A stretch of 64,000 bases of DNA from Octopus vulgaris (lineage: Eukaryota). The stretch spans positions 58,094,001 through 58,158,000 of the forward strand of contig OX597817.1 of the NCBI GenBank assembly GCA_951406725.2, in the 5' to 3' direction. The notes below the pieces were generated by a model. The model did not search any database. It had not been told where the DNA came from and worked only from the letters and a program-made list of their open reading frames with translations. A program made the position numbers and the translations under genes. Of the stretch, positions 24,811 through 58,410 are shown one piece after another; positions within the stretch are counted from its first letter, which is position 1, and each line of letters opens with the position of its first letter.

Positions 24811-25052
24811 TAAGAATAATAATGATAATAATAATGATAATAATAATAATAATAATAATAATAATAGTAATAATAATAATAATAATGATAATAATAATAA
24901 TAATAACAACAACAACGAAAAATACCTTAGGAATGAGAACCCAGAAATTTCCCCATGACACCTGATGAAGGCTGGAGGGTATATCAGCCGAAATGTTGTG
25001 TTGACAACAAACAAGATAAGGACAAATATCCGTCAAATGTAAATAATGTAAA
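24682..25052 (+). mobile_element. Short element: tRNA-like head + (AAT)n + hammerhead ribozyme; same sequence as the terminal repeat of the Penelope element at 32706-33488
   Basis: TGGTGTAGTG.TTAAG...GAGTTTGATTCC head; homologous to 32735-32965(-) and 33312-33488(+). Confidence 0.8.
24957..25002 (+). ncRNA. Minimal type I hammerhead ribozyme (Penelope-type)
   Basis: gacac-CTGATGA-a-GGCTG(10 nt)CAGCC-GAAA-tg-TT-gtgtt. Stem I gacac/gtgtt; stem III CG appears as TG here but as CG in the 33.4-kb copy. Confidence 0.7.
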
Positions 25053-26721: not shown

Positions 26722-27999
26722 TCATCCCAAAGAAGGCCAGAAAGCCGCAAAATACACAACTCCGTCTTCTACGTAAGACGAAACATAATCAACATGGAGA
26801 TTTTTTGCAGAAGCCTTCCTTACTTCATAAAGGAAACCATAACGAGATACGGAATGTCTTTGCCAATAATTCTTTTCCTGCTTGGAATTCCAGATGGCAC
26901 TAACAAAGGAATTGTCTCCATTGTTGAAGAATTTAACATAAATCAATGTCAGTTTGTTGTTGATCTGTTTCTTCAGCTCAAAGACGAAGTTGTCAAGAGT
27001 GATGCCTAACCAAGACACCGTTTTAATGCCAGGCTCTTCTGTTTTGGCATAAACGGAAGAGACCACAAGGCAATCATCAATTGATACCAAAGACTGAATG
27101 GTTAAATGCCATCCATTCTTCTTCAGTTCACTGATTCTAGCAAGATGTTCTTCTGGACTTTGGTGAGTATAAACCTTCTGACAAACAACATTTACATTTT
27201 CAAACACAATCAGAAAATTCAAGTGGCCCTCATGACAATAGGTCTCTAATAGTTTCACAGAGAAACCGAGGTCACATTGTTTACTTACAACAATATCCAC
27301 ATTATCAACCGAAACATCAAGACACACAAGCGACTGGTTAGCATTACTATGACTACTACTACTCCTATGCCATACTGTGTTAAAATAGGTTTTGCTGTCG
27401 AGTTGATGGCTGCTTAACCAGTGAAGGCTATAACTCAAAGACATCATCATATCAACATGTGCCTGCAGAAGATCATGAGGAATTATAATGGTAACGACTT
27501 GTTTACCATCTTCGGTCGATATATTTAATGAAGAATCACTGAGAGGCTTCCCTTCGTGCCATAATGGTAAGCTAGGAATCACACTGAGACCGTATCTCAT
27601 CAACCCATTGAGGTCCATGTCTTTAGACCAGGCATTAAACAACAAGACCCAAGTAAGTCCAGACTTATCATGCATCACAGTACATGATGTTCCCTCCATT
27701 GCTCCAGTATGGCCCCACGAACAGCCATTATCTTCCACCTCTAAGCCAAATCCATACCATTCATCACCATTCTCATATTCAGGACGGTTGAGCATCATTT
27801 GAACGGTTTCCCCTTCTAGCAGTTTGGACTGATTCTCAAACAAACAATTGAACAACTGGAGTACATCACTGGCATTGGCCACCCAGCCTCCATACGATTC
27901 CGCTCCATCCATTTGTACCAGACTCGAATTTGGAAGTGTCCATCCTTGGAAAGCTTGGGGTTTTCTCAGTTCCAGCCAAGATTTGTGGAAATAATTCAC
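26722..27999 (-). CDS. Terminal coding exon 6: C-terminal half of the hydrolase (HTG) plus five ~50-aa repeats
   Basis: 425-codon open frame; acceptor ctgtattccag|GTG, TGA stop at 26724-26722. Confidence 0.93.
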   Translation of the reverse strand: MNYFHKSWLELRKPQAFQGWTLPNSSLVQMDGAESYGGWVANASDVLQLFNCLFENQSKLLEGETVQMMLNRPEYENGDEWYGFGLEVEDNGCSWGHTGAMEGTSCTVMHDKSGLTWVLLFNAWSKDMDLNGLMRYGLSVIPSLPLWHEGKPLSDSSLNISTEDGKQVVTIIIPHDLLQAHVDMMMSLSYSLHWLSSHQLDSKTYFNTVWHRSSSSHSNANQSLVCLDVSVDNVDIVVSKQCDLGFSVKLLETYCHEGHLNFLIVFENVNVVCQKVYTHQSPEEHLARISELKKNGWHLTIQSLVSIDDCLVVSSVYAKTEEPGIKTVSWLGITLDNFVFELKKQINNKLTLIYVKFFNNGDNSFVSAIWNSKQEKNYWQRHSVSRYGFLYEVRKASAKNLHVDYVSSYVEDGVVYFAAFWPSLG

Positions 28000-30716
28000 C
28001 TGGAATACAGAAGAACAAAGACACAGGGTTATATATTTTGGTAAAGAATCACAAAGTTTAGAGGTTTAAGGCTGTCATCAAACCAACCCAGGAGGAAGGA
28101 GTGGACTGCGGTGGTTAGAGAGGAAGGAGAGAGATATAAGAGGAGGGGGATGAGAGAAAGAGAGGGGGAAGTGGAGCAAAAGATGGGCAGAGAGAGATGA
28201 GAAGATGAAGAGAGTAGTAATGGTGGTGGTGGTAATAATAGTAGCAGGAGGAGAAATAGTTTTAGTTGTTCATTTCCAAGTGAGTTCTGATCAAACAGAA
28301 ATATGATCAAAGATGTCCCAGCAATGACCATTTCATCTTTTTCATAATCAAATAAACACACCTGTAATTTCTTCTTTGAACATTAGTCTGAGAGCAGATG
28401 AAAGGCAAAGTCGACCTCGGTAGAATTTGAACTCAGAACACGAAGACAGACGAAATACCGTTAAGCATTTTGCCTGGCGTGCTAACGTTTCTTCTAGCTT
28501 GTCGCCTAGAAGAATCTTTTCTATTCCAGGCACAAAGCTCGAAATTTTTGGGGAGGAGGGGGATAGTCAATTAGATCGACCTCAGTATGCAACTGGTACT
28601 TAATTTATTGACCCCTGAAAGGATGAAAGACAAAGGTGACCTCTGCAGAATTTGAACTCTGAATGTAAAGACAGACGAAATACTGCTAAGAATTTCGTCT
28701 GGCATGCTAATGTTTCTGCCAGTTCTCGGCTTTTATATAAATGCTATAGAAATATTCAGCTTCACACAGTCGGAGCATATTCCTTCTTCATGTTTGAAAG
28801 ACCCCATGGAGGAATTACCATTCCAACTGAAGACAAGACTACATACCTCATCATTGCTAATAACACCACAAGTGTTATTATGTCCAGTTGTCATGTTGGT
28901 TATATTGACATTCTTCAGAATTTCTTTGAGGAATTCTGTGTATGGCTTCTGTTCCACTTTCTCAATAACTTTACCAAGAATCAAATAACCCAGGTTGGAA
29001 TAACTGTGCCGTTTACCTGTAAAGTAAGACTTGTACAATAATAAAATACAAACAGTCCACCTAGGTTTGTTCCCTCAACTATCAAATTCTTTGAACTTAT
29101 GATAGGTCCAGAAATTAAACAAATTAATCTTGGGCATTCCTTTGTTGTTGCTGCTGTTGATGATGATGATGAAAACTACCACTTGACAAGTTAATAAAGA
29201 TATAAATTAGTTACAGTTTGTGCATCAATTGTTTAACCCCATTTCTGGTTGAGTAGGATCAAAAACCATCCAGCCAGGACCATCACATTCCATTTTTTTA
29301 CTTTCTCCAAATATAATGTGTTTCAGAATAAGTTATTCCGTGAGACTTACTTTTTCTTAGCTGACAAAGCATTGTAATTTAAGGAAGGTTTAGCTATTAT
29401 TTCTACCCAATAAAGTAAACATGTAGAAGATTTTGGCCAGTGGCATGTAAAAAGCACAATCCGAACATGGTCGATGCCAGTCCCAACTGGGTCTTGTGCC
29501 AGTAGCACATAAAAAGCACCATCTGAACGTGGCTGATGCCAGTGCTGCCTGACTGGCTCCCATGCTGGTGGCATGTAAAAGCACCCACTACATTCTCTGA
29601 GTGGTTGGTGTTAGGAAGGGCATCCAGCTGTAGAAACCTTGCCAGATTAGATTGGAGCCTGGTGCAGCCTCCTGGCTTGCCAGTCTTCAGTCAAACTGTC
29701 CAACCTATGCCAGCTTGGAAAACGGACGTTAAACGATGATTATGATGATGATGAAGCATAAAATGAGAGTCTAGCAAAATAAAAAGAAACAAAACCATTC
29801 CAATCAATTTTTTGTTTGTTTCAAGAAATTTCCGGTGGGTAAATTGTAATTACCTGGGGGTAAATTGTAATTACCTGGAGTAAATTGTAATTGCCTGGGG
29901 GTAAATTGTAATTACCTGGAGTAAATTGTAATTTTTTGCTCATCATAAAACGTAAAAGTTTATCTTCTGAAGACATTTCCTTGTTCTTGAAGATATTATC
30001 TAAGTTCCAGAAGACAGCGTCGCCCACTTGGTCTCGATCCCATCCGGCGCTGTGCTGCAAAAGATGTTTCACTGTAATCTGGTTGAGACGATGATCTCCT
30101 TTAGAAGTGGATTTATAATTGTTCAAAATACCTGCAACAAAAAAAGGTATTAGAATATCTTTTAGCTTTTACTTGTTTCAGCCATTAGACTGTGGCCGTG
30201 CTGTAGCACCACCTTCAAGGATTTTTAGTTGACAGACTTGACCCTAGTACTTCTTTAATTTTAAGTCTGGTACTTATTCTATCGGTCTCTTTTGCTGAAC
30301 TGCTAAGTCATGGGAACAAAAACACACCAACACCAGTTGTCAAGCAGTGGTGAGGGACATACACACATAAAGGGCTTCTTTCAGTTTCCATCTACCAAAT
30401 CCACTCACAAGGCTTTGGTTGACCCGAAGCTATAGTAAAAAACGTTTGACCAAGGTGCCATGCAGTGGGACTGAACTTGGGACCATGTGGCTGGGAAGCA
30501 AACTTACCTCACAGTCTCACCTGTGCCTTTCAAAGGAAATCTATTTTAGAAACTTCAGAAGTGCAGGTGTGGCTGTGTGGTGAGAGGTTGGCTTTCCAGC
30601 CATGTGGTTACAGTTTCAATTTCACTGCATGCCACTTTGAGTAAGTGTCTTCTCCTATATAGCCTTGGGACAGTTAAAGCCTTGTAAGTGGATTTGGTAG
30701 ATGAGAACCGAAGGAA

Positions 30717-30760
<44 letters not shown>

Positions 30761-31626
30761 AGGGGAAGTCAAAAATTATCCGCACTTTTACCATAACATA
30801 TCTTTATTATTGTCACTCTGCCTTCAGCGCATGCATGCTTACAGTTGGTACTATTGAGGTCATGTGACTGAAGTTTGAGCCTGATCACGCTATTTTTCTT
30901 TCTGGAAACCATAACGTGTAAAGCCTGGCTGCTCCAATAGCAACATGCACCAAAGAAGAACAAAGAGAAGTGATCTGATTCCTCTGGTCGGAAGGTGTGT
31001 CAGGTGCTGAAATTCAAAGGAGGCTTTTAGTACAAATACAGGGACAGTACACTACCGTGTGGAAGTGTGTATGAGTGGAGTGAGAAGTTTAAAAGTGGCC
31101 GGACAAGCGTAATGTGCACGAAGAGGGAGCAGGACGCCCGTCCACCTCCACCACTGACGAGAAGATTCAGCAAGCTTGTGAGATGGTAAATGGTGAACCG
31201 TTTCACCATTACCTTCTCTCTCAGATCACTGCTCATTGTTCTTCTTTGCTGCACATTGCTAATGGAGCGGCCATGCTTACACTGTAAAGCCAGAAAGAAA
31301 GATAGAGCAATCAGGTTCAAACTTCAGTCACATGACTATAATAGTACCAACTGTAAGTATGCATGCGCTGAAGGCAGTGTAACAATAATAAAGATATATT
31401 ATGGTGGAAATGCGGATAATTTTTGACTTCTCATATATGTATGTGGCATGAAAAAAGCACTCACTACATTCTCGGAGTGGTTGGCGTTAGGAAGGGCATC
31501 CAGCTGTAGAAACTCTGCCAGATCAAGGTTGGAGCCTGGTGCAGCCATCTGGTTCACCAGTCCTCAGTCAAAATTGTCCAACCCATGCTAGCATGGAAAG
31601 CGGACGTTAGACGACGATGATGATGA

Positions 31627-31665
<39 letters not shown>

Positions 31666-34600
31666 TAGATACATATAAACATAAATACAAAGAGATATCA
31701 TCATCATTTAATGTCCCTTTTCCCATTCTGGCATGGGTTTGGCAGTTTGACAGGAACCAACAACCTACAGGGAGCTGTGCTGATTCCTGATGTCTGTTTA
31801 GCATGGTCTTTATGGCTGGATGATGTCCTTCCTAATGCCAACCACTTTGCAAAGTGGACTGGCAGCTTTTTTCATGTGAGGCACCGACTCTAGTCAGATA
31901 AGTATGATTTGTGTGTGTGTGTGTGTGTGTGTGTGATAAATACCAGGCTTAAAAAATAAGTACTGGAGTCAATTCATTTGACTAAATATTGAAGGCAGTG
32001 CCCCAGCATGGTCACAGTCCCATGACTGAAACAAGTAAAAGACAAAAGAAAAATATCGTTTTCTACTCTAGGCACAAGGCCTGAAATTTTGGGGAAGGTG
32101 GGGCAGTCCATTAGATTGACCCCAGTATGCAACTGGTATTTAATTTATCAACCCCGAAAAGATGAAATGCAAAGTCAACCTCGGTGGAATTTGAACTCAG
32201 AACGTAAAAACAGATGAAATACCGCTAAGTATTTCACCCGACATGCTAACGTTTCTGCCAGTTCCACCACCTTAACAAAAGAAAAATATTAAAAACAAAA
32301 CAATCAGTGAAAATTTCACAATTCTGACTTACCTTTTGGTCCAAAGACTTTGGCAGACAATTCCAGCTTCTTTTGCTGCCAAAGAACCAGAATGCCAATG
32401 GCTGTTAAAGTCTTACTAATACTTGCTATACGGAACACAGAATCTGGGTGGACCTTTCGGTCGAGGCTTGCCATTCCATAACCTGGAATATTACAAATAT
32501 TTTTAAAATTTCAAAAAACGTAACAAAATGGCCCTAATGATTCTTCTGTCCTCATAAAAGGGTTCGTTTTTAATTTTGCGGAATAACTATAGTTTAATTA
32601 TTAGCCAGCCCCCAAATCCTGCAACACCATATCTGATGGCATCAAAGACATACAGGTGTATTAGACGCACCTCAATTTCAGCAGAGCATATTCAAGAAAA
32701 AATTACAGTTCTATATTTAAGAGATGAGGAATTATGTACATTATTTACAATATTTACATTTGACGGATATTTGTCCTCATCTTGTTTGTCGTTAACACAA
32801 TGTTTCAGGTGATTTGGGGAAATTTCGAACCAGGGTTCTCATTCCTAAGGTATTTTTTGACATCATTATTAATATTATTATTATTCAGGTCACTGCTTGG
32901 AATCAAACTCGGAATCTTGGGGCTAGTAGCCCACGCTCTTAACCACTACACCATATGTCCGTGGGCAATTACAGAGTGAATTTTAGGGCATATAAACCCA
33001 ACATTTTTGTATCCTTCCTTAATACCGGTTCCCATATGCTACTCATATCTGCACTCGGTCTGCTTAGGTGGTTGTCGTGTCCTAGCATATGTGCTGCTTC
33101 TTTTAGTTTTCGTATTTTCCAGTGGTGTTCTCTGTCTATTATTTTAACTTCATCCCACAGAGGAAGGTGGTCTCTATTTTTCCATACATGATCAGCTATA
33201 CCCTATTTTTCAACATCTCATGTCACAGCTTTACGATGTTACTCTACCCTTATTTTGAGGGGACGGCATGTCTCGCCTTTGTATAACCTACCACAACTGC
33301 AGTCTTTGGTCTAATAATAATAACAATAATAATAATAATAATAACGTTGAAAAATACCCTAGGAATGAGAACCTAGGTTTGAAATTTCCCCAAGACACAT
33401 GATGAAGGCTGGAGAGTATATCAGCCGAAACGTGTTAACAAGAAACAAGATGAGGACAAATATCCATCAAATGTAAATAATGTAAATAATATACAAGAAA
33501 AAATTATTTGGTGCCTTAAAGCTTAAGGGAGGTCAAACTTCACATATAGGATCTGGTGTGATTTTCAGAGAGACTTTTGGAGAAAAAGTGGGTTGTATGA
33601 GAATATTAAGGGTCCTCAGGCATAACTGTTTACCAGGCCTTTTTGAATGTATGTTTTAGTAGAATTAACATGTAGAGTGTTAGCCCTTCAGAGTTCCGGG
33701 CCCTTGGGCAGTGCCTGATTGACCAACGGCTCAGTCCACCCTTGGTTGTATGCCATCGAACAGTAAGTTCTACTAGGTTACATGGTCCTAGTGGCAGGAG
33801 ACCACACCTGACCACACAACAACCTCTGCAGGCCTTGTGGCTATAACAACCAGAATAAAGACATTAGTCTCTAATAAAGACCAAAATAAAGATTGTTAGT
33901 CTTTATTTTTAGCACAAGGCCAGCAATTTTAGCCGGAGGGGGTTACTCAAGGGTTTTGCTCCACTACCCTACCAGTTCTCAATTGGTGCTTTATTTTATT
34001 GATCCCCCAAGGGATAAAATGCATAGCTAACATTGGCAGGAATTGAACCCAGAACATAAAGAGCCAAAACAAAGTCCATGAGGGACTTTCTACAATGCTT
34101 GACTGACTCTAATAATTCAGCCAATCGGCTGATCATAATGCTAATGTGTATGTATATGTATGTGTGTCTGACTTATATGTATGTGTGTAGGTTATATATG
34201 TGTATGTTTGTAAGTAACTTATGTGTGTGTGTGTTACTTGTAAAATGTTCTCATGATCTGACCTTGTCTGTAAATCTGCTCTCCCTTATAACTTAGGGCC
34301 ACAGCAGCCCCTGGGATTCCTTGTTCTTTCATAAAGTTTACAATAATATCATCAAACTGCTTCATATAAATCGGTGGTGCTTCAGTTGGTGAGACTGGCA
34401 GAGAATCTGAAAAGAGATGACGAAAGGGTTTTGCAGTTTTAAGACAATTTTCAGGTCAGCATTCGACAGGGGAGCTACTACAATGTAAGGGTAAGTTTGA
34501 GGGTGAGGTGAGGGTTATCTAACACTGAATATTCTTTGGGGAAGGGCAAGTTACCAAATAAACCCACCTCTTGCATAACGAGAAGATCTGTCAGGAAATT

Positions 34601-39925: not shown

Positions 39926-40398
39926 TCATGATTGCATCTTCGAATATAGTTAACACAGCCTTCACAAATCATTCATGTACACCTAATTTCTTTTGATTAC
40001 AAAACATGGTACTTTGTCAAAGGCCATCTCCATGACAACGAATACCAGCCGTAGTGGTTTACTTTGAGCCAATTATTTCTCCTCACAGAGAAGATTTGCA
40101 CATGTGGTACCTCTTCTCAACACAACGCTCATAGAGCTGAACTGCATTTCACCTAAACTAGGTTTCTTCCTGATTAGTTCAGATGTGACTCTCCCTGTGG
40201 CCTTTGTTGTCTGGTCCAGTAACTTACATAACTCTATAATTTCTCCCCTTTAGAGGATATTCTTTACCCTTGTAGCAATTTCTAATGACACTGCCACACT
40301 AGTCATTGCATATGGCACTCTTTTGTATCACTCGATCTGCTATTCCCATGGCTGTCATGTATCTTATCTCATCACATATTTTAAGCATCTCAACAACT

Positions 40399-40968
40399 AG
40401 AAAATTATTATTTTAAATCTCACAACAAGAGATATTCAGTAACAATACTTTGGAGTAAAGATTGTTTGCCAACATAACATGGCATCCTGGTTTAGGACAA
40501 ATGTTGCTGCAATTTAACCCCAGGAGACATCGTCTCCAGCTGGCTATATGACACAATCTGTGTCATATTTTCAAACAAGGGAACCTAGCACCCCCACTCA
40601 GCTCAAAACATCTGTGTATCACGATTTCCAGGTTATTTCTCTTTTCATGCTGTGAGATTTACAAATAATAATTTTCTAATTTATAGATCAGTGACTAGTT
40701 GTCACTTTGAAAGCTATATATTTTGAACACGAATTTGGCAGCGCCACCTCTAGCTGAATAATTATTCTGCGCTGATTAAGGGAAATAACCTGGAAATCGT
40801 GATAGACAAATGTTTTGAGCTGAGTGAGGGTGCTAGATTCCCTTGTTTGAAAATATAAGGACACAGATCATGTCGTATAGCAGCCGGAGATGATATCTCC
40901 TAGGGCTAAATTACAGCAACATTCGTCCTAAACCAGGAATGCCATGTTATGTTGGCAAACAATCTTTA
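40399..40968. mobile_element. Retrozyme-like element inserted as an inverted dimer
   Basis: Left part (40399-40645) and right part (40648-40968) are opposite-orientation copies of the 354-bp unit at 56985; 12-bp TSD atctcaacaact at 40387-40398 and 40969-40980; degenerate hammerhead at ~40766-40810. Confidence 0.8.
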
Positions 40969-41061
40969 ATCTCAACAACTGTCCTTCATCAATCAGTAGT
41001 TTTCCCTGTCTTCATTTCCTTAATTGCTCTATCTACCATTCTGTTGTCAACTAGAATTACT

Positions 41062-44192: not shown

Positions 44193-44236
<44 letters not shown>

Positions 44237-44239
<3 letters not shown>

Positions 44240-46685
44240 GTTAATAAAATATATGCATATATATAAACATATATGTACGTACCTACCTCTACATGTACAT
44301 ATACACGCATATATGTGTACAGGACACCAAAAAGACGTCGAACACATAGAGAGACGAAAAACATAGACACAAACCAAGGAACAAGACAGGCAAAAAAAAA
44401 GAGAGATGCAGGACAATAAGCACAACGAAAAATCCCCTTCTTCAGTCGCTAAAGTTTCATCTACTAAACGTTTCGAAGGATAAAAGCGAGACGTATACTT
44501 CGAATGAAAAATTCCTTCCTGCGAAAAGCAAATCAATTAAAATTCTGAGATCTTTTCGCAGAGGGGTAAAAAAGCAAGACGGTAACGACAGTACAAACAT
44601 ATAAACAGTAAGAAATATATATATAAACAGTGGAAAAATAAATATATAACAGTGAGAGACAGGACAAGGAGAACAAGATAAGAAGGGCTGTTAACGCCAG
44701 ACGAAAAAAGTATTGCAAACGCTGGATTATAGTGGACGACGAGAGAGGAAGATGTCGACCAGTGGCCTTAGAAGGCGGGCGAGAAAGGACAGGATAGCAG
44801 TTACGACGGAAGTAACGTCGCAGATGGACGACGGGAATGGGGGAGGAGGAGCAAGAGGAAGAGAGAGAAGAAGGGGAATGGTGCGAGGAGACCATGAAGA
44901 ACAGTGAGGGGAGAGAGAAAGGAAGAGACAAGTTAAGTGAGGGAAAAAAGACGAAAAAGGGAATGGGAGAGAAAGAAAGAAAGAAAGATGCAGAGTCGCG
45001 TGAGAGTTAATATCAAGGCGAACTTGATAAACAGAACAATCTTACTTAATAGGGTGCGTGCGTTTAGTCGTATAATATGTTAATAAAATATATGCATATA
45101 TATAAACATATATGTACGTACCTACCTCTACATGTACATATACACGCATATATGTGTACAGGACACCAAAAAGACGTCGAACACATAGAGAGACGAAAAA
45201 CATAGACACAAACCAAGGAACAAGACAGGCAAAAAAAAGAGAGATGCAGGACAATAAGCACAACGAAAAATCCCCTTCTTCAGTCGCTAAAGTTTCATCT
45301 ACTAAACGTTTCGAAGGATAAAAGCGAGACGTATACTTCGAATGAAAAATTCCTTCCTGCGAAAAGCAAATCAATTAAAATTCTGAGATCTTTTCGCAGA
45401 GGGGTAAAAAAAGCAAGACGGTAACGACAGTACAAACATATAAACAGTAAGAAATATATATATAAACAGTGGAAAAATAAATATATAACAGTGAGAGACA
45501 GGACAAGGAGAACAAGATAAGAAGGGCTGTTAACGCCAGACGAAAAAAGTATTGCAAACGCTGGATTATAGTGGACGACGAGAGAGGAAGATGTCGACCA
45601 GTGGCCTTAGAAGGCGGGCGAGAAAGGACAGGATAGCAGTTACGACGGAAGTAACGTCGCAGATGGACGACGGGAATGGGGGAGGAGGAGCAAGAGGAAG
45701 AGAGAGAAGAAGGGGAATGGTGCGAGGAGACCATGAAGAACAGTGAGGGGGAGAGAGAAAGGAAGAGACAAGTTAAGTGAGGGAAAAAAGACGAAAAAGG
45801 GAATGGGAGAGAAAGAAAGAAAGAAAGATGCAGAGTCGCGTGAGAGTTAATATCAAGGCGAACTTGATAAACAGAACAATCTTACTTAATAGGGTGCGTG
45901 CGTTTAGTCGTATAATATGTTAATAAAATATATGCATATATATAAACATATATGTACGTACCTACCTCTACATGTACATATACACGCATATATGTGTACA
46001 GGACACCAAAAAGACGTCGAACACATAGAGAGACGAAAAACATAGACACAAACCAAGGAACAAGACAGGCAAAAAAAGAGAGATGCAGGACAATAAGCAC
46101 AACGAAAAATCCCCTTCTTCAGTCGCTAAAGTTTCATCTACTAAACGTTTCGAAGGATAAAAGCGAGACGTATACTTCGAATGAAAAATTCCTTCCTGCG
46201 AAAAGCAAATCAATTAAAATTCTGAGATCTTTTCGCAGAGGGGTAAAAAAAGCAAGACGGTAACGACAGTACAAACATATAAACAGTAAGAAATATATAT
46301 ATAAACAGTGGAAAAATAAATATATAACAGTGAGAGACAGGACAAGGAGAACAAGATAAGAAGGGCTGTTAACGCCAGACGAAAAAAGTATTGCAAACGC
46401 TGGATTATAGTGGACGACGAGAGAGGAAGATGTCGACCAGTGGCCTTAGAAGGCGGGCGAGAAAGGACAGGATAGCAGTTACGACGGAAGTAACGTCGCA
46501 GATGGACGACGGGAATGGGGGAGGAGGAGCAAGAGGAAGAGAGAGAAGAAGGGGAATGGTGCGAGGAGACCATGAAGAACAGTGAGGGGGAGAGAGAAAG
46601 GAAGAGACAAGTTAAGTGAGGGAAAAAAGACGAAAAAGGGAATGGGAGAGAAAGAAAGAAAGAAAGATGCAGAGTCGCGTGAGAG
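44237..46685. repeat. Tandem array, period 839-840 bp, structure A-B-A-B-A (A ~770 bp, B ~69 bp)
   Basis: ttaataaaat recurs at 44241, 45080 and 45920; copies differ essentially only in homopolymer length; flanked by (TA)n on both sides. Confidence 0.95.
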
Positions 46686-46778
46686 ATATATGTACACATA
46701 TATGTATATATATATATGTACACACATATGTATATATATATGTGTGCATGTGTACATATATACATATATATATATATG

Positions 46779-55373: not shown

Positions 55374-56368
55374 TATTATTCCTTTAGATTTTGTCACAAG
55401 GTCAGCAATTTTTAGGGGGCAGTGGCTAGTCAATTACATTGACCCCAGGATGGGTGTTTTCTAAAAAGATAAACAGATAAAAACCGTAACAAGTAGAGAT
55501 GAATACCTTGCTCAAGTATTTTCTGATTTCATTGATGAAATACAGGTTTTCTAAAGCAGTTTTTTAATAATACTACCATCACCACATGTTATTTCTAGTT
55601 ATGTTAGATTAGTTAATGCTTTGTGTTGTAGTAAATTGATTTAACACAGACTTGGCTATTGTTTTTTTCAGGCAGAGGATGACTCTGAATTAATTATTTA
55701 ACAATCTTATTTGCCCTCTTCCTTTATCCTTGTCATCATCATCATCATCATCATCACCACCCTCTTCCTGTTCTTTTATATCTGTTGTTCCTTGCTGGCA
55801 CGACTTTTCAAAGCAGTGTCTAACAGATGGATGCACTTTCTGAGGCCAACCTTTCACTCTGCAGGAATATGCTGTACATCATCATCATCATCATTATCAT
55901 CATCATCGTTTAAGGTCCGTTTTTTGATGCTGGCATGGGTTGGACGGTCCAACAAGAGCTGGTGAGCCAGAACACGGGTCCAAACACCCTGTTTTGGCAT
56001 GGTTTCTACAGTTGGATGCCCTTCCTAATGCCAATCACTTTGTAGAGTGTGGACTGGGTGCCTTTTAGGTGGGACCTGCACTAGTGATGTCGGGTGAGTA
56101 GTATTGAGGGAGGTGGCTTTATGCCAAGTGTTAAGAGGTTAAAGCATGATAGAGGGACAAAAAATAGATGTCTTATAGTTATGGAAAACACAGTTACCTT
56201 TGTGAAGTATATTTTCCACTTAAATGTGGCTAACCCTTAAGAGTTGATGCTACTGTAGCTTGTAGCCTCAGGAGGACATCTCCTCCAGCTGGCTGTTGAT
56301 ACACTATCTGTGCCCTATCAGTATTTTCAAAGGGAAGTCATCCTTCCCATCTCCAGCCTGACGTGATA

Positions 56369-56413
56369 CACACGGACCTGGGTTTCTGGATATTGACCCA
56401 TCGTCAGCATGTG
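56369..56413 (-). ncRNA. Type I hammerhead ribozyme, intact core, GUC cleavage triplet
   Basis: Minus strand: cacatg-CTGACGA-tggg(tcaata)tcca-GAAA-cccagg-TC-cgtgtg. Stem I 6 bp, stem II 4 bp, short near-palindromic stem III. Confidence 0.8.
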
Positions 56414-56698
56414 ACAACCACCGGTTGGCGATGTGAAGTGGTTCCATATGTGAAGTGGTTCCAATGTGAAGTGGTAAATATACTTCACAATGTCGTGCAG
56501 CTACTGTTTATACCTTGCTCAGAAATTTATTATTGACCTTTGACCTTTGACCTTTCTTGCAAAAGAGAGAAGTAGGTTGTGAAGATGGATCAAGGGTATA
56601 CCTCCAAGTTACAGGAATATGAATATAAGAGAAGTGAACCAGAGAATTGGACAGGGAAATGGGTCTGTTCTAAATATTATAACATACATGGTATAACT

Positions 56699-56956
56699 CA
56701 GTGGTTCTCAGCTGGGGTCAACATGATCATTGGGGGGCCCACAGACGGTCTTGTTGCTAAAATTTATGTGCAATAAACTGGTTATGCATCTATGATAAAT
56801 AAAATATTTAAACAATTTTTTTTATACGATTCCAAATAATATTTAATTATAAAAATATAATATGCTTATTTTAAAACATTGAATGGCTATGGGGTTCCAC
56901 CTGGGTAAAATAGGAATTAAAGGAGTTCCTAGGTAAAAAATGGTCGAGAACCACTG
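56699..56956. mobile_element. hAT-type MITE
   Basis: TIR cagtggttctc / gagaaccactg. Confidence 0.7.
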
Positions 56957-56984
56957 GTATTCACTGGAATATACAGAATACAAT

Positions 56985-57393
56985 AAAGATTGTTTGCCAA
57001 CATAACATGGCAGTCCTGGCTTAGGACGAATGTTGCTGTAATTTAGCTCCAGGAGACATCGTCTCCAGCTGGCTATACAACATGATCCGTGTCCTTATAT
57101 TTTCAAACAAGGGAATCTAGCACCCCCACTCAGCTCTAAACAATATCTGTGTATTGCGATTTCTGGGTTATTTCCCTTCATCAGCATAGAATAATTGTTT
57201 GGCTAGAGGTGGTGCTGATAATTTCCCCATTCAAAATATGTAGTTTTCAAAATGACAACTAGTCACTGATTTATAAATTAGAAAATTACTAGTTTTTAAA
57301 TCTACAACGAGAGATATACAGCAACAGTATTTTGTAGGAAAGATTGTTTGCTATACACAGAAATTTGCGACACACAGATATTGTTTTGAGCTG
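56985..57393 (-). mobile_element. 354-bp retrozyme-like unit with terminal redundancy and a short inverted fragment
   Basis: aaagattgtttgc at 56985 and again at 57339; 57358-57393 is an inverted copy of the hammerhead 3' half and its flank. Confidence 0.75.
57146..57190 (-). ncRNA. Type I hammerhead ribozyme in the 354-bp unit
   Basis: tctatg-CTGATGA-aggg(aaataa)ccca-GAAA-tcgcaa-TA-cacaga; comparison with the 40-kb copies suggests a palindromic stem III ATCGCGAT. Confidence 0.68.
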
Positions 57394-57686
57394 GTGATGG
57401 TGATGATGGTAGTGGTGGTGGTGATGGTGCTGGTAGTAGTGGTGGTGCTGATGGTGGTGGTGCTGATGGTGGTGGTGCTGGTGCTAGTGGTGGTGGTGAT
57501 GGTGGTAGTGGTGATGGTTGGTGGTGATGATGGTGATGGTGGAGGTGCTGGTGGTAGTGGTGGTGGTGATGGTGGTGGTGGTGGTGGTGGTGGTGGTGGT
57601 GGAGGTGGTGGTTGTGCTGGTGATGGTGGTGATGGTGGTGGTAGTGCTGGTGGTGGTGCTAGTGGTGATGGTGGTGATGGTGGTAG

Positions 57687-57717
<31 letters not shown>

Positions 57718-58410
57718 GGTGGTGGTTGTGCTGGTGATGGTGGTGATGGTGGTGGTAGTGCTGGTGGTGGTGCTAGTGGTGATGGTGGTGATGGTGGTAG
57801 TGGTGGTGGTGGTGGTGGTGGTGGTGGTGGTGATGGTGGTGATGGTGGTGGTGGTGATGGTGGTGGTGGTGGTGATGGTGGTGGTGCTGGCGCTGGTGGT
57901 GGTGCTGGTGGTAGTGGTGCTGGTGGTGGTGGTGGTAGTGGTGGTTGTGGTGGTGGTGATGGTGCTGGTGGTAGTGGTGGTGGTGGTGGTGGTGCTGATG
58001 GTGGTGCTGATGGTGGTGGTGGTGGTGGTGGTGGTGATGGTGGTGGTGATGGTGATGGTGGTGATGGTGGTGGTGGTGGTGGTGGTGGTGGTGGTGGTGG
58101 TGGTGGTGATGGTGCTGGCGCTGGTGCTGGTGCTGGTGGTGGTGGTGCTGATGGTGGTGGTGGTAGTGGTGGTTGTGGTGGTGGTGGTGGTGATGGTGCT
58201 GGTGGTAGTGGTGGTGGTGGTGGTGCTGATGGTGGTGGTGGTGCTGGTGGTGGTGGTGGTGGTGGTGGTGGTGGTGGTGGTGGTGGTGGTGATGGTGGTG
58301 CTGCTGGTGGTGGTGGTAGTGGTGGTGGTGCTGATGGTGATGGTGGTGATGCTGGTGGTGGTGCTGGTGGTGATGGTGGTGCTGGTGGTTGTGGTGGTGT
58401 GGTGGTTGTT
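57391..58410. repeat. ~1-kb (GGT)n-derived repeat with higher-order internal duplications
   Basis: Seen directly; gives poly-Gly/Pro/Val ORFs in several frames. Confidence 0.92.

Follow-up and report, generated by a model that had tools for sequence, protein, structure and literature searches.

A type I hammerhead motif within a mutated member of a short, high-copy repeat, likely of the non-LTR retrozyme type

A stretch of 64,000 nucleotides (the window) of microsatellite-rich, AT-rich animal DNA, with repeats that seem to resemble those of octopods, was analyzed around a hammerhead motif located on the minus strand at 56413-56369. The motif lies in a lone, mutated member of a short, high-copy repeat. 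We consider it likely that this repeat is a non-autonomous element of the non-LTR retrozyme type spread by enzymes of Penelope-like elements (PLEs), and poor cleavage is predicted for the copy. Observed were the motif itself, the high copy number of the repeat in four organisms, a fixed core, a helix III that is self-complementary among the siblings, a 3′ end repeated in inverse orientation beside the motif, and a sister unit of approximately 356 nt without an ORF. The repeat carrying the motif is referred to as family B and its sister as family A; the features are listed in Table 1.

The motif and its sibling copies

A type I hammerhead descriptor applied to both strands of the 64-kb window matched only at 56413-56369, and a match was found in 1 of 400 shuffled windows (block-wise dinucleotide shuffles, 2-kb blocks). 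The minus-strand letters read CACAUG / CUGACGA / UGGGU CAAU AUCCA / GAA / ACCCAGGU / C / CGUGUG. As the earlier note had stated, all core letters (CUGACGA, GAAA and GUC) are present, in agreement with the type I core CUGANGA, GAAA and UH, stem I has 6 pairs, including one G.U that stems from the U at 56409, and the predicted cut falls between 56375 and 56374 by hammerhead numbering. The note proposed a 4-bp stem II; in this copy, stem II folds as 5 pairs, among them a G.U, around a loop of 4 nt. In the family majority, a C.A mismatch is followed by GGGU/ACCC around a 4-nt loop. The stem of this copy opens with U-A and not with the canonical G10.1-C11.1. The conserved pair next to the core is absent in each case (U-A here, C.A in the family majority, A.A in copy A1 of family A); natural exceptions to it are described in an excerpt of PMC3088659. 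No hammerhead family was matched in Rfam by the whole window at the gathering score or by 55900-57300 at E values up to 10. The description "intact canonical" is not supported: 6 of the 45 letters differ from the sibling majority, one of them at the center of the dimer helix, and G10.1-C11.1 is missing.

Sibling copies were sought in 24 sequencing runs from four organisms, none recorded as RNA, and 20 of the runs contained part of 56090-57390. Contigs of four DNA-type runs were aligned to 56100-56620 (521 nt) at 80% likeness, which gave 5,452, 4,774, 3,595 and 3,036 contigs in organisms A, B, C and D, respectively, part of these counts belonging to a neighboring repeat at 56100-56160. On the 128 nt around the hammerhead (56335-56462), run X2 had 769 contigs. 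Copy numbers derived from depth (flank ratios of hundreds for the 5′ half and thousands downstream) were set aside and contig counts used instead, because depth is no copy number. The high-copy dispersed repeat that adjoins family B extends over 55884-56160, has at least 10 relatives in the window and shows a depth peak at 56100-56160; presumably it resembles RTE-type SINE tails.

Within the motif, none of the 12 core positions and 13 of the 33 others changed in at least 7% of the X2 depth (Fisher p 0.008), a test softened by the lack of CpG in the core, by 6 of the 13 varied positions being this copy's own and by the choice of contigs at 80% likeness. At 56409, C was found in 56–65% of sibling depth (61% in X2), which restores the stem I pair, and N7 (56403) was U in 77–93% of sibling DNA depth (90% in X2). 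In run X2, T was replaced by C at 56400 (68%) and at 56390 (76%). Three changes, followed in the four DNA runs, fall in helix III: A to G at 56379 (83–87%; 87% in X2), C to T at 56381 (55–70%; 69% in X2) and G to A at 56378 (5–37%; 33% in X2). From the majority letters at these positions, helix III of the family is therefore ACTCGGGT, ACTCGAGT or ACCCGGGT and not ACCTAGGT, the palindrome proposed earlier, since other copies carry CG at the center. Each of the three forms self-pairs at 8 of 8 positions, and the window copy is without the central CpG.

The A at 56387 was unchanged in three of the four DNA runs by change counts, with one hidden row possible in X9, and was U in 18% of the X2 depth (7 contigs). 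A further subfamily, marked by a loose end at 56377 (12 contigs), has G at N7 and another loop on the same stem. A lack of other genomic copies with preserved stems had been named in the earlier note, together with a failure to cleave, as an outcome against the motif; the sibling copies keep the stems. An open stem I, a closed stem II and a helix III, with covariation, make up the layout of the motif family, and by its letters and pairing 56413-56369 genuinely belongs to the type I hammerheads, among those that act as dimers. The fixed 12 core positions together with the fully self-pairing helix III support dimer cleavage for family B as judged from these letters, and the C.A at 10.1/11.1 could make even source copies slow.

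Table 1. Coordinates of the hammerhead motif, its parts and the surrounding repeat copies in the window
Feature	Position	Strand	Basis or remark
Type I hammerhead motif, family B copy	56369..56413	-	sequence; sole descriptor match
Stem I 5′ strand	56408..56413	-	pairs with 56374-56369
Core C3-A9, CUGACGA	56401..56407	-	
Stem II and loop	56387..56400	-	14-nt region UGGGU-CAAU-AUCCA
Helix III, 8 nt, ACCCAGGU	56376..56383	-	central CG changed to CA here
Predicted cleavage site after GUC, C17 = 56375	56374..56375	-	established hammerhead numbering
Family B sense copy, ~245 nt, shortened at 5′ side	56202..56444	-	depth drop, loose ends, homology to family A
17-bp unit, 2.7 copies, sense/inverted junction	56431..56475	.	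Tandem Repeats Finder score 83
Inverted copy of family B 3′ end plus ~45 nt family tail	56461..56535	+	
Copy A1, one full ORF-less unit of ~356 nt	56985..57354	-	
Inverted family A fragment adjoining A1, edge of (TGG)n array	57355..57402	+	score 57
Copy A2, core altered to CUGAUUA, faces A3 head to head	40648..40971	+	87% over 320 nt to A1
Copy A3, starts inside hammerhead	40395..40643	-	

The insertion and the sister family

The sense copy of family B consists of the hammerhead and approximately 170 nt downstream. Depth drops at 56444 and 56202, and the loose ends at both points show the family continuing. Depth has its maximum over 56200-56350, declines across the hammerhead to almost nothing at 56442-56459 and rises to a second peak on the inverted piece (56478-56531). 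This gradient fits 5′ truncation from a downstream start and may partly be mapping bias. The loose end before 56202 matches 56491-56505, within the inverted piece, and the tail of this piece aligns with the continuation of family A (score 31). On the inverted partner, the extension is 45 nt in family B and approximately 60 nt in A3, as compared with the 30–40 bp of a typical one-sided PLE tail. Past a short gap, similarity to the tail resumes in the sense copies A1 and B for another 15–20 nt or so, possibly as a degenerate remnant, and the pattern of a tail on one end only is not clean here.

An inverted, 5′-truncated copy adjoins the insertion at B, at A1 and at A2/A3, and in the contigs of the four runs the inversion joints fall at many different places. 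PLE insertions are described as inverted truncated copies with an extension at one end (excerpt of PMC8557442). This extension is attributed in PMC11167929 to priming by the PLE reverse transcriptase at two internal sites. In sense orientation, A1, A2 and B all end within approximately 20 nt of one homologous point, which is not the cut site and lies approximately 170 nt downstream of the predicted cut; a shared end point away from the cut site fits internal priming (PMC11167929). Neither a long direct terminal repeat around the insertion nor a target-site duplication was seen.

The description of the element as a second, related short one was borne out by alignment with copy A1 (57354-56985). 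The region 56500-56190 aligned with 57360-56970 at a score of 82, as compared with at most 40 in 200 shuffles; the two cores are at the homologous place, and families A and B are approximately 65% alike. Copy A1 begins and ends in the same 13 nt, as a direct repeat. Its hammerhead-like motif (57190-57146) has A.A at the base of stem II, AUCGCAAU as helix III and A at position 17, with a mismatch in stem I and an imperfect helix III. Copy A3 is without the 5′ half of the motif and passes the end of A2 into the sequence that precedes the A1 hammerhead (score 102, A3 continuation against A1 upstream). From the ends of A1 and the continuation of A3, family A is therefore a closed unit of approximately 356 nt with no room for an ORF.

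For family B, the corresponding evidence comes from loose ends. Upstream of 56444 the family runs into a sequence that contains (TA)n (agreement 0.8 over 20 contigs). The loose-end consensus of run X1 behind 56535 (agreement 0.58 over 57 contigs) has as its last 12 letters those of the A1 linker at 57272-57261. A head-to-tail joint from 56417 to 56200 was seen in one contig each of X4 and X12 (2 of the 4 runs), with unknown letters between. On the basis of the linker letters, these joints and the homology to family A, family B probably closes into a unit in the same way as A. The window contained no tandem array of family B.

The piece could also be the truncated pseudo-LTR of an autonomous Penelope-like element, the hammerhead serving to process long tandem PLE transcripts; we regard this as unlikely. 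The inverted truncated copy, the extension at one end and the fixed internal 3′ end are PLE hallmarks and speak for it; the Poseidon element PAc, in which the ORF begins at stem II, has the same spacing of 26 nt from A9 to position 17; an ATG is present at 56401 in this copy; and the linker of family B is read from loose ends only. It is opposed by the closing of the sister family into a unit of approximately 356 nt without an ORF and by the 12 letters that the continuation of B shares with the A1 linker. The frame from 56401 is interrupted by 4 stops within 67 codons, and its ATG is lost in copies with the majority letter at 56400. No reverse transcriptase (RT) or GIY-YIG ORF was found in 111 selected window frames scanned against Pfam, and P0001, the family A frame downstream of the hammerhead, had no protein relative, which is weak evidence. 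A coding role for the region downstream of the hammerhead was considered and found unsupported, as its frames carry stops.

Other features of the window were recorded alongside. A third, unrelated hammerhead-like family occurs at 24940-25010 (+), 33312-33486 (+) and 32735-32885 (-). It is of the minimal PLE type, with CTGATGA, an unpaired A, a GGCTG/CAGCC stem II, GAAA and a 4-nt helix III; each copy directly follows an (AAT)n microsatellite, and all three are damaged. A spliced host gene of the beta-lactamase family spans 26722-34455 (-), with Pfam PF00144 pieces at 34237-34455, 32319-32510, 29824-30168 and 28736-29074; its long last exon ends in a BTRD1-like repeat, and no 5′ end was located. 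The inverted piece of A1 is abutted by a (TGG)n array of 1 kb (57392-58406). The window further contains a near-perfect tandem triplication at 44231-46688 (period approximately 840 bp, 99% identical) and inverted duplicate pairs with 89–98% identity lying 1.3–3 kb apart (19827-20410/22752-23328, 38021-38180/39552-39711 and 6804-6924/8161-8281).

Predicted folding, probable RNA runs and proposed mechanism

The minimum-energy fold predicted for the 45-mer is not the hammerhead (z -1.4), helix III being taken up instead in pairing with the 5′ strand of stem II. Within the whole insertion, the predicted pairing probability of the hammerhead stems is at most 0.05. Self-duplexes of helix III have 6 of 8 pairs and -4.8 kcal/mol in this copy, with two C.A mismatches at the center, and 8 of 8 pairs and -8.9 to -14.9 kcal/mol in the sibling letter sets. 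In rough sums that leave out tertiary contacts, Mg2+ and proteins, the double hammerhead is 10.2 kcal/mol worse than the misfold for this copy and differs from it by +0.3 to -3.9 kcal/mol for the sibling letter sets. No second family B hammerhead that might act as partner exists in the 64-kb window, and a hetero-dimer with the A1 hammerhead 777 nt upstream was rejected on a predicted helix III duplex of +0.3 kcal/mol. Among the loose ends listed, there was no pile of ends at 56374/56375, contigs being unreliable in showing ends.

Given the weak helix III, the misfold, the unformed stems and the lack of a partner in the window, the 56413-56369 copy is predicted to be decayed and to cleave little or not at all. 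The dimer type described in the earlier note is supported; in a self-dimer of this copy, helix III has 6 of 8 pairs. The choice of this copy as the best candidate for activity is sound in that its core is the least damaged among the window motifs examined; likely activity is not supported, in view of the predicted misfold. In Xenopus, 8 of 9 genomic retrozyme dimers did not cleave, according to part of a preprint (10.64898/2026.07.22.740005), and in PAc, cleavage by the hammerhead required protein, and insertion in vitro did not depend on the ribozyme (PMC11167929).

Three further runs, X15, X17 and X18, are RNA by guess only, and their contigs show neither ends, strand nor level. Family sequence was present in 28, 3 and 11 of their contigs, respectively. 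Record 11 of X17, a single contig reconstructed from depth bookkeeping, has ACTCGAGT as helix III, C at 56409 and an unchanged core; its stem II, UAGGU/ACCUA, carries a compensatory change from G-C to A-U on both sides (56399/56388). Two of its 9 differences are unlisted and presumably near the ends. Record 6 of X15, which has the greatest depth among the 8 pieces listed from X15 (116.6 as compared with at most 20.6), shares with record 11 of X17 the span (56364-56417), the difference count and a 97-nt loose end. Both records, from two organisms, stop 97 nt upstream of the aligned piece. The two records represent a fully paired sister subfamily different from the window copy, and its stem II letters also occur in the X2 DNA (10% and 18% of depth). 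What was observed for this subfamily is presence in probable RNA runs, and not transcription, cleavage or circles. No circle joint was seen within the 128-nt stretch 56335-56462 in the three probable RNA runs.

That this copy is itself an active ribozyme cutting a host transcript, either as a dimer in trans with sibling RNAs or aided by protein, appears quite improbable. In its favor, the core is complete, the base of stem II is better paired by U-A than by the C.A of the family, helix III retains 6 of 8 pairs, the three probable RNA runs contain sibling sequences, and the minus-strand beta-lactamase-family gene 22 kb downstream means that the site could be in a sense-strand intron. The central mismatches of the dimer helix, the predicted misfold by approximately 10 kcal/mol, the stems predicted not to form in context and the missing partner in the window argue against activity. 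Moreover, none of the 19 RNA-run pieces listed, of 42, matches the window copy exactly, each differing by at least 3 letters, and no exon of the neighboring gene was recognized above 34.5 kb.

An MITE-like DNA transposon with terminal inverted repeats that captured a hammerhead is very doubtful and already largely refuted. A 22-bp inverted match (56469-56490 / 56200-56221) does bracket the motif, but the inverted piece is 75 nt long and continues into internal family sequence, other copies enter the (TA)n-containing sequence at 56444 and not an inverted repeat, the inversion joints lie at many places, and no target-site duplication was seen. That an unrelated repeat happens to match the hammerhead consensus, for which the lack of an Rfam match and the modest z-score of the fold would speak, is scarcely credible and is refuted by the covariation of the stems among copies and by the core at the homologous position in the sister family, in addition to the rarity of descriptor matches in shuffled windows.

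For the retrozyme-type repeat favored here, the following course is proposed. Tandem source arrays would be transcribed, and two neighboring hammerheads would pair through their palindromic helix III strands of 8 nt. Cleavage after position 17 would release monomers, which a host ligase may circularize. The steps of dimer cleavage and monomer closing are inferred from published cases (excerpts of PMC4209133, PMC7229834 and PMC6765202). A PLE reverse transcriptase/GIY-YIG protein would start the cDNA internally, approximately 170–230 nt downstream of the cut site, and, as the insertion scars suggest, would insert truncated, often inverted pieces. The window copy would be one dead-end insertion that has decayed afterwards, mostly at CpG sites.

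A wider reading is advanced only tentatively. Families A and B might form an unreported, very abundant retrozyme group of an animal lineage, probably octopods, with a hammerhead subtype of its own and a fully paired, still transcribed, dimer-cutting subfamily that gives circles of approximately 350 nt; the inverted insertions with their fixed 3′ end would then be direct structural evidence that PLE proteins mobilize retrozymes by internal priming. The subtype proposed under this reading would combine a short GGG/CCC stem II, mismatched (N.A) at its base, with a perfect 8-nt palindromic helix III, would be missed by Rfam and would also occur in unrelated eukaryote-like contigs.

Decayed hammerheads like that at 56413-56369 number in the thousands per animal genome, and the single locus is of little importance by itself. 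The family would extend non-LTR retrozymes to a lineage for which no hammerhead report was found, and it offers a stem II variant (C.A or A.A at 10.1/11.1) missed by Rfam. The link between retrozymes and Penelope-like elements is so far an indirect one, to which the PLE-style scars of insertion are relevant. The well-paired sister subfamily in the probable RNA runs is a better experimental target than the 56413-56369 copy.

Similar motifs and comparison with known systems

A family-specific pattern had no match in metagenome contigs. With a looser pattern (core and GGG/CCC-A only), 122 loci were obtained (5 viral and 117 metagenome), which comprised 61 distinct motifs. Most are chance matches, 57 of the 61 being without a stem I of at least 5 pairs. 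Such a stem I was present in 4 and a helix III self-pairing at 8 of 8 positions in 8, and 3 had both (L027, L065 and L076; p 0.006). These three, at L065:577-620 (+), L027:1315-1359 (-) and L076:755-800 (+), share the N.A plus GGG/CCC base of stem II and the 8-nt self-pairing helix III. L065 has the C.A mismatch, GGGU/ACCC and ACTCGAGT, as in family B. In L027, a second core-like motif lies 325 nt upstream.

When three window copies and four of the loci were aligned in 7 rows, 84.7% of the cells were paired, a value reached in 0 of 500 shuffles, and changes on both sides affected every one of the six pairs of stem I and three of those in helix III; this covariation only describes the loci, because 4 of the 7 rows were picked for pairing. 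Rfam gave no hammerhead family for L001-L005, and L003/L022, a candidate phage hammerhead, was set aside as it lies inside a long ORF. An RT-like frame on the other strand, 200 nt from the L065 hammerhead, was kept as a lead only (atlas 0.88 to RVT_1 clusters; no Pfam match and no homolog). No PLE ORF tied to these loci was found.

No report of cephalopod hammerheads or retrozymes was found in the literature searched; Lunse et al. 2017 and bioRxiv supplements may list related motifs. The terms "hammerhead" and "ribozyme" are absent from two cephalopod repeat papers (PMC13282606 and PMC8967140).

The hammerheads of newt and axolotl satellite 2 and of Schistosoma Sm-alpha resemble the present one in stems I and II of 6 and 4 bp, GUC and dependence on dimers (excerpts of PMC7229834 and PMC4209133). 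It differs from those described there in the lack of the conserved G10.1-C11.1 next to the core and in being a dispersed fragment and not a satellite. From the minimal PLE type, which has a stem II of 7–8 pairs and a near-absent helix III, it is distinguished by a helix III of 8 nt and a stem II of 4 pairs; the two also differ in the extra unpaired A before G12, and no RT or GIY-YIG ORF was found here. As far as ORFs were scanned (111 window frames), the family does not qualify as an autonomous PLE.

Likeness was also seen to the hammerheads in pseudo-LTRs of endonuclease-bearing PLEs (Cervera and de la Pena 2014, PMC4209133, in part; PAc of Anolis, PMC11167929; Lunse et al. 2017, as cited in part of PMC6765202), which are of type I and whose palindromic helix III lends itself to dimer formation. 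Both show insertions that are truncated and inverted, with a fixed internal 3′ end downstream of the ribozyme, and the A9-to-17 spacing is the same as in PAc (PMC11167929).

Metazoan non-LTR retrozymes, as portrayed in excerpts of Cervera and de la Pena 2020 (PMC7229834) and Li, Clavereau and Pollet 2026 (10.64898/2026.07.22.740005), likewise have one type I hammerhead per short unit without an ORF. A non-coding unit with one type I hammerhead, within the 150–450 nt of such elements, was found directly for family A and is probable for family B from homology and loose ends. No long direct terminal repeat that would mark an LTR was seen around the insertion, and the thousands of contigs indicate high copy number. 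Among the non-LTR retrozymes in these excerpts, the 350–390-bp repeats of Mytilus are closest in size to the family A unit, and low GC, many solitary monomers, a 6-bp stem I and a weak helix III are common to them and to families A and B. The axolotl HHR_Amex2 is also mismatched at the base of helix II (part of PMC7229834), with U.U as compared with C.A or A.A here. The PLE-type inversion at insertions and the absence of a detected target duplication set the present families apart from non-LTR retrozymes. Taken by its motif and layout, the family is of the dimer-type hammerheads, like those of PLE pseudo-LTRs and non-LTR retrozymes, and thus represents a kind of element already known.
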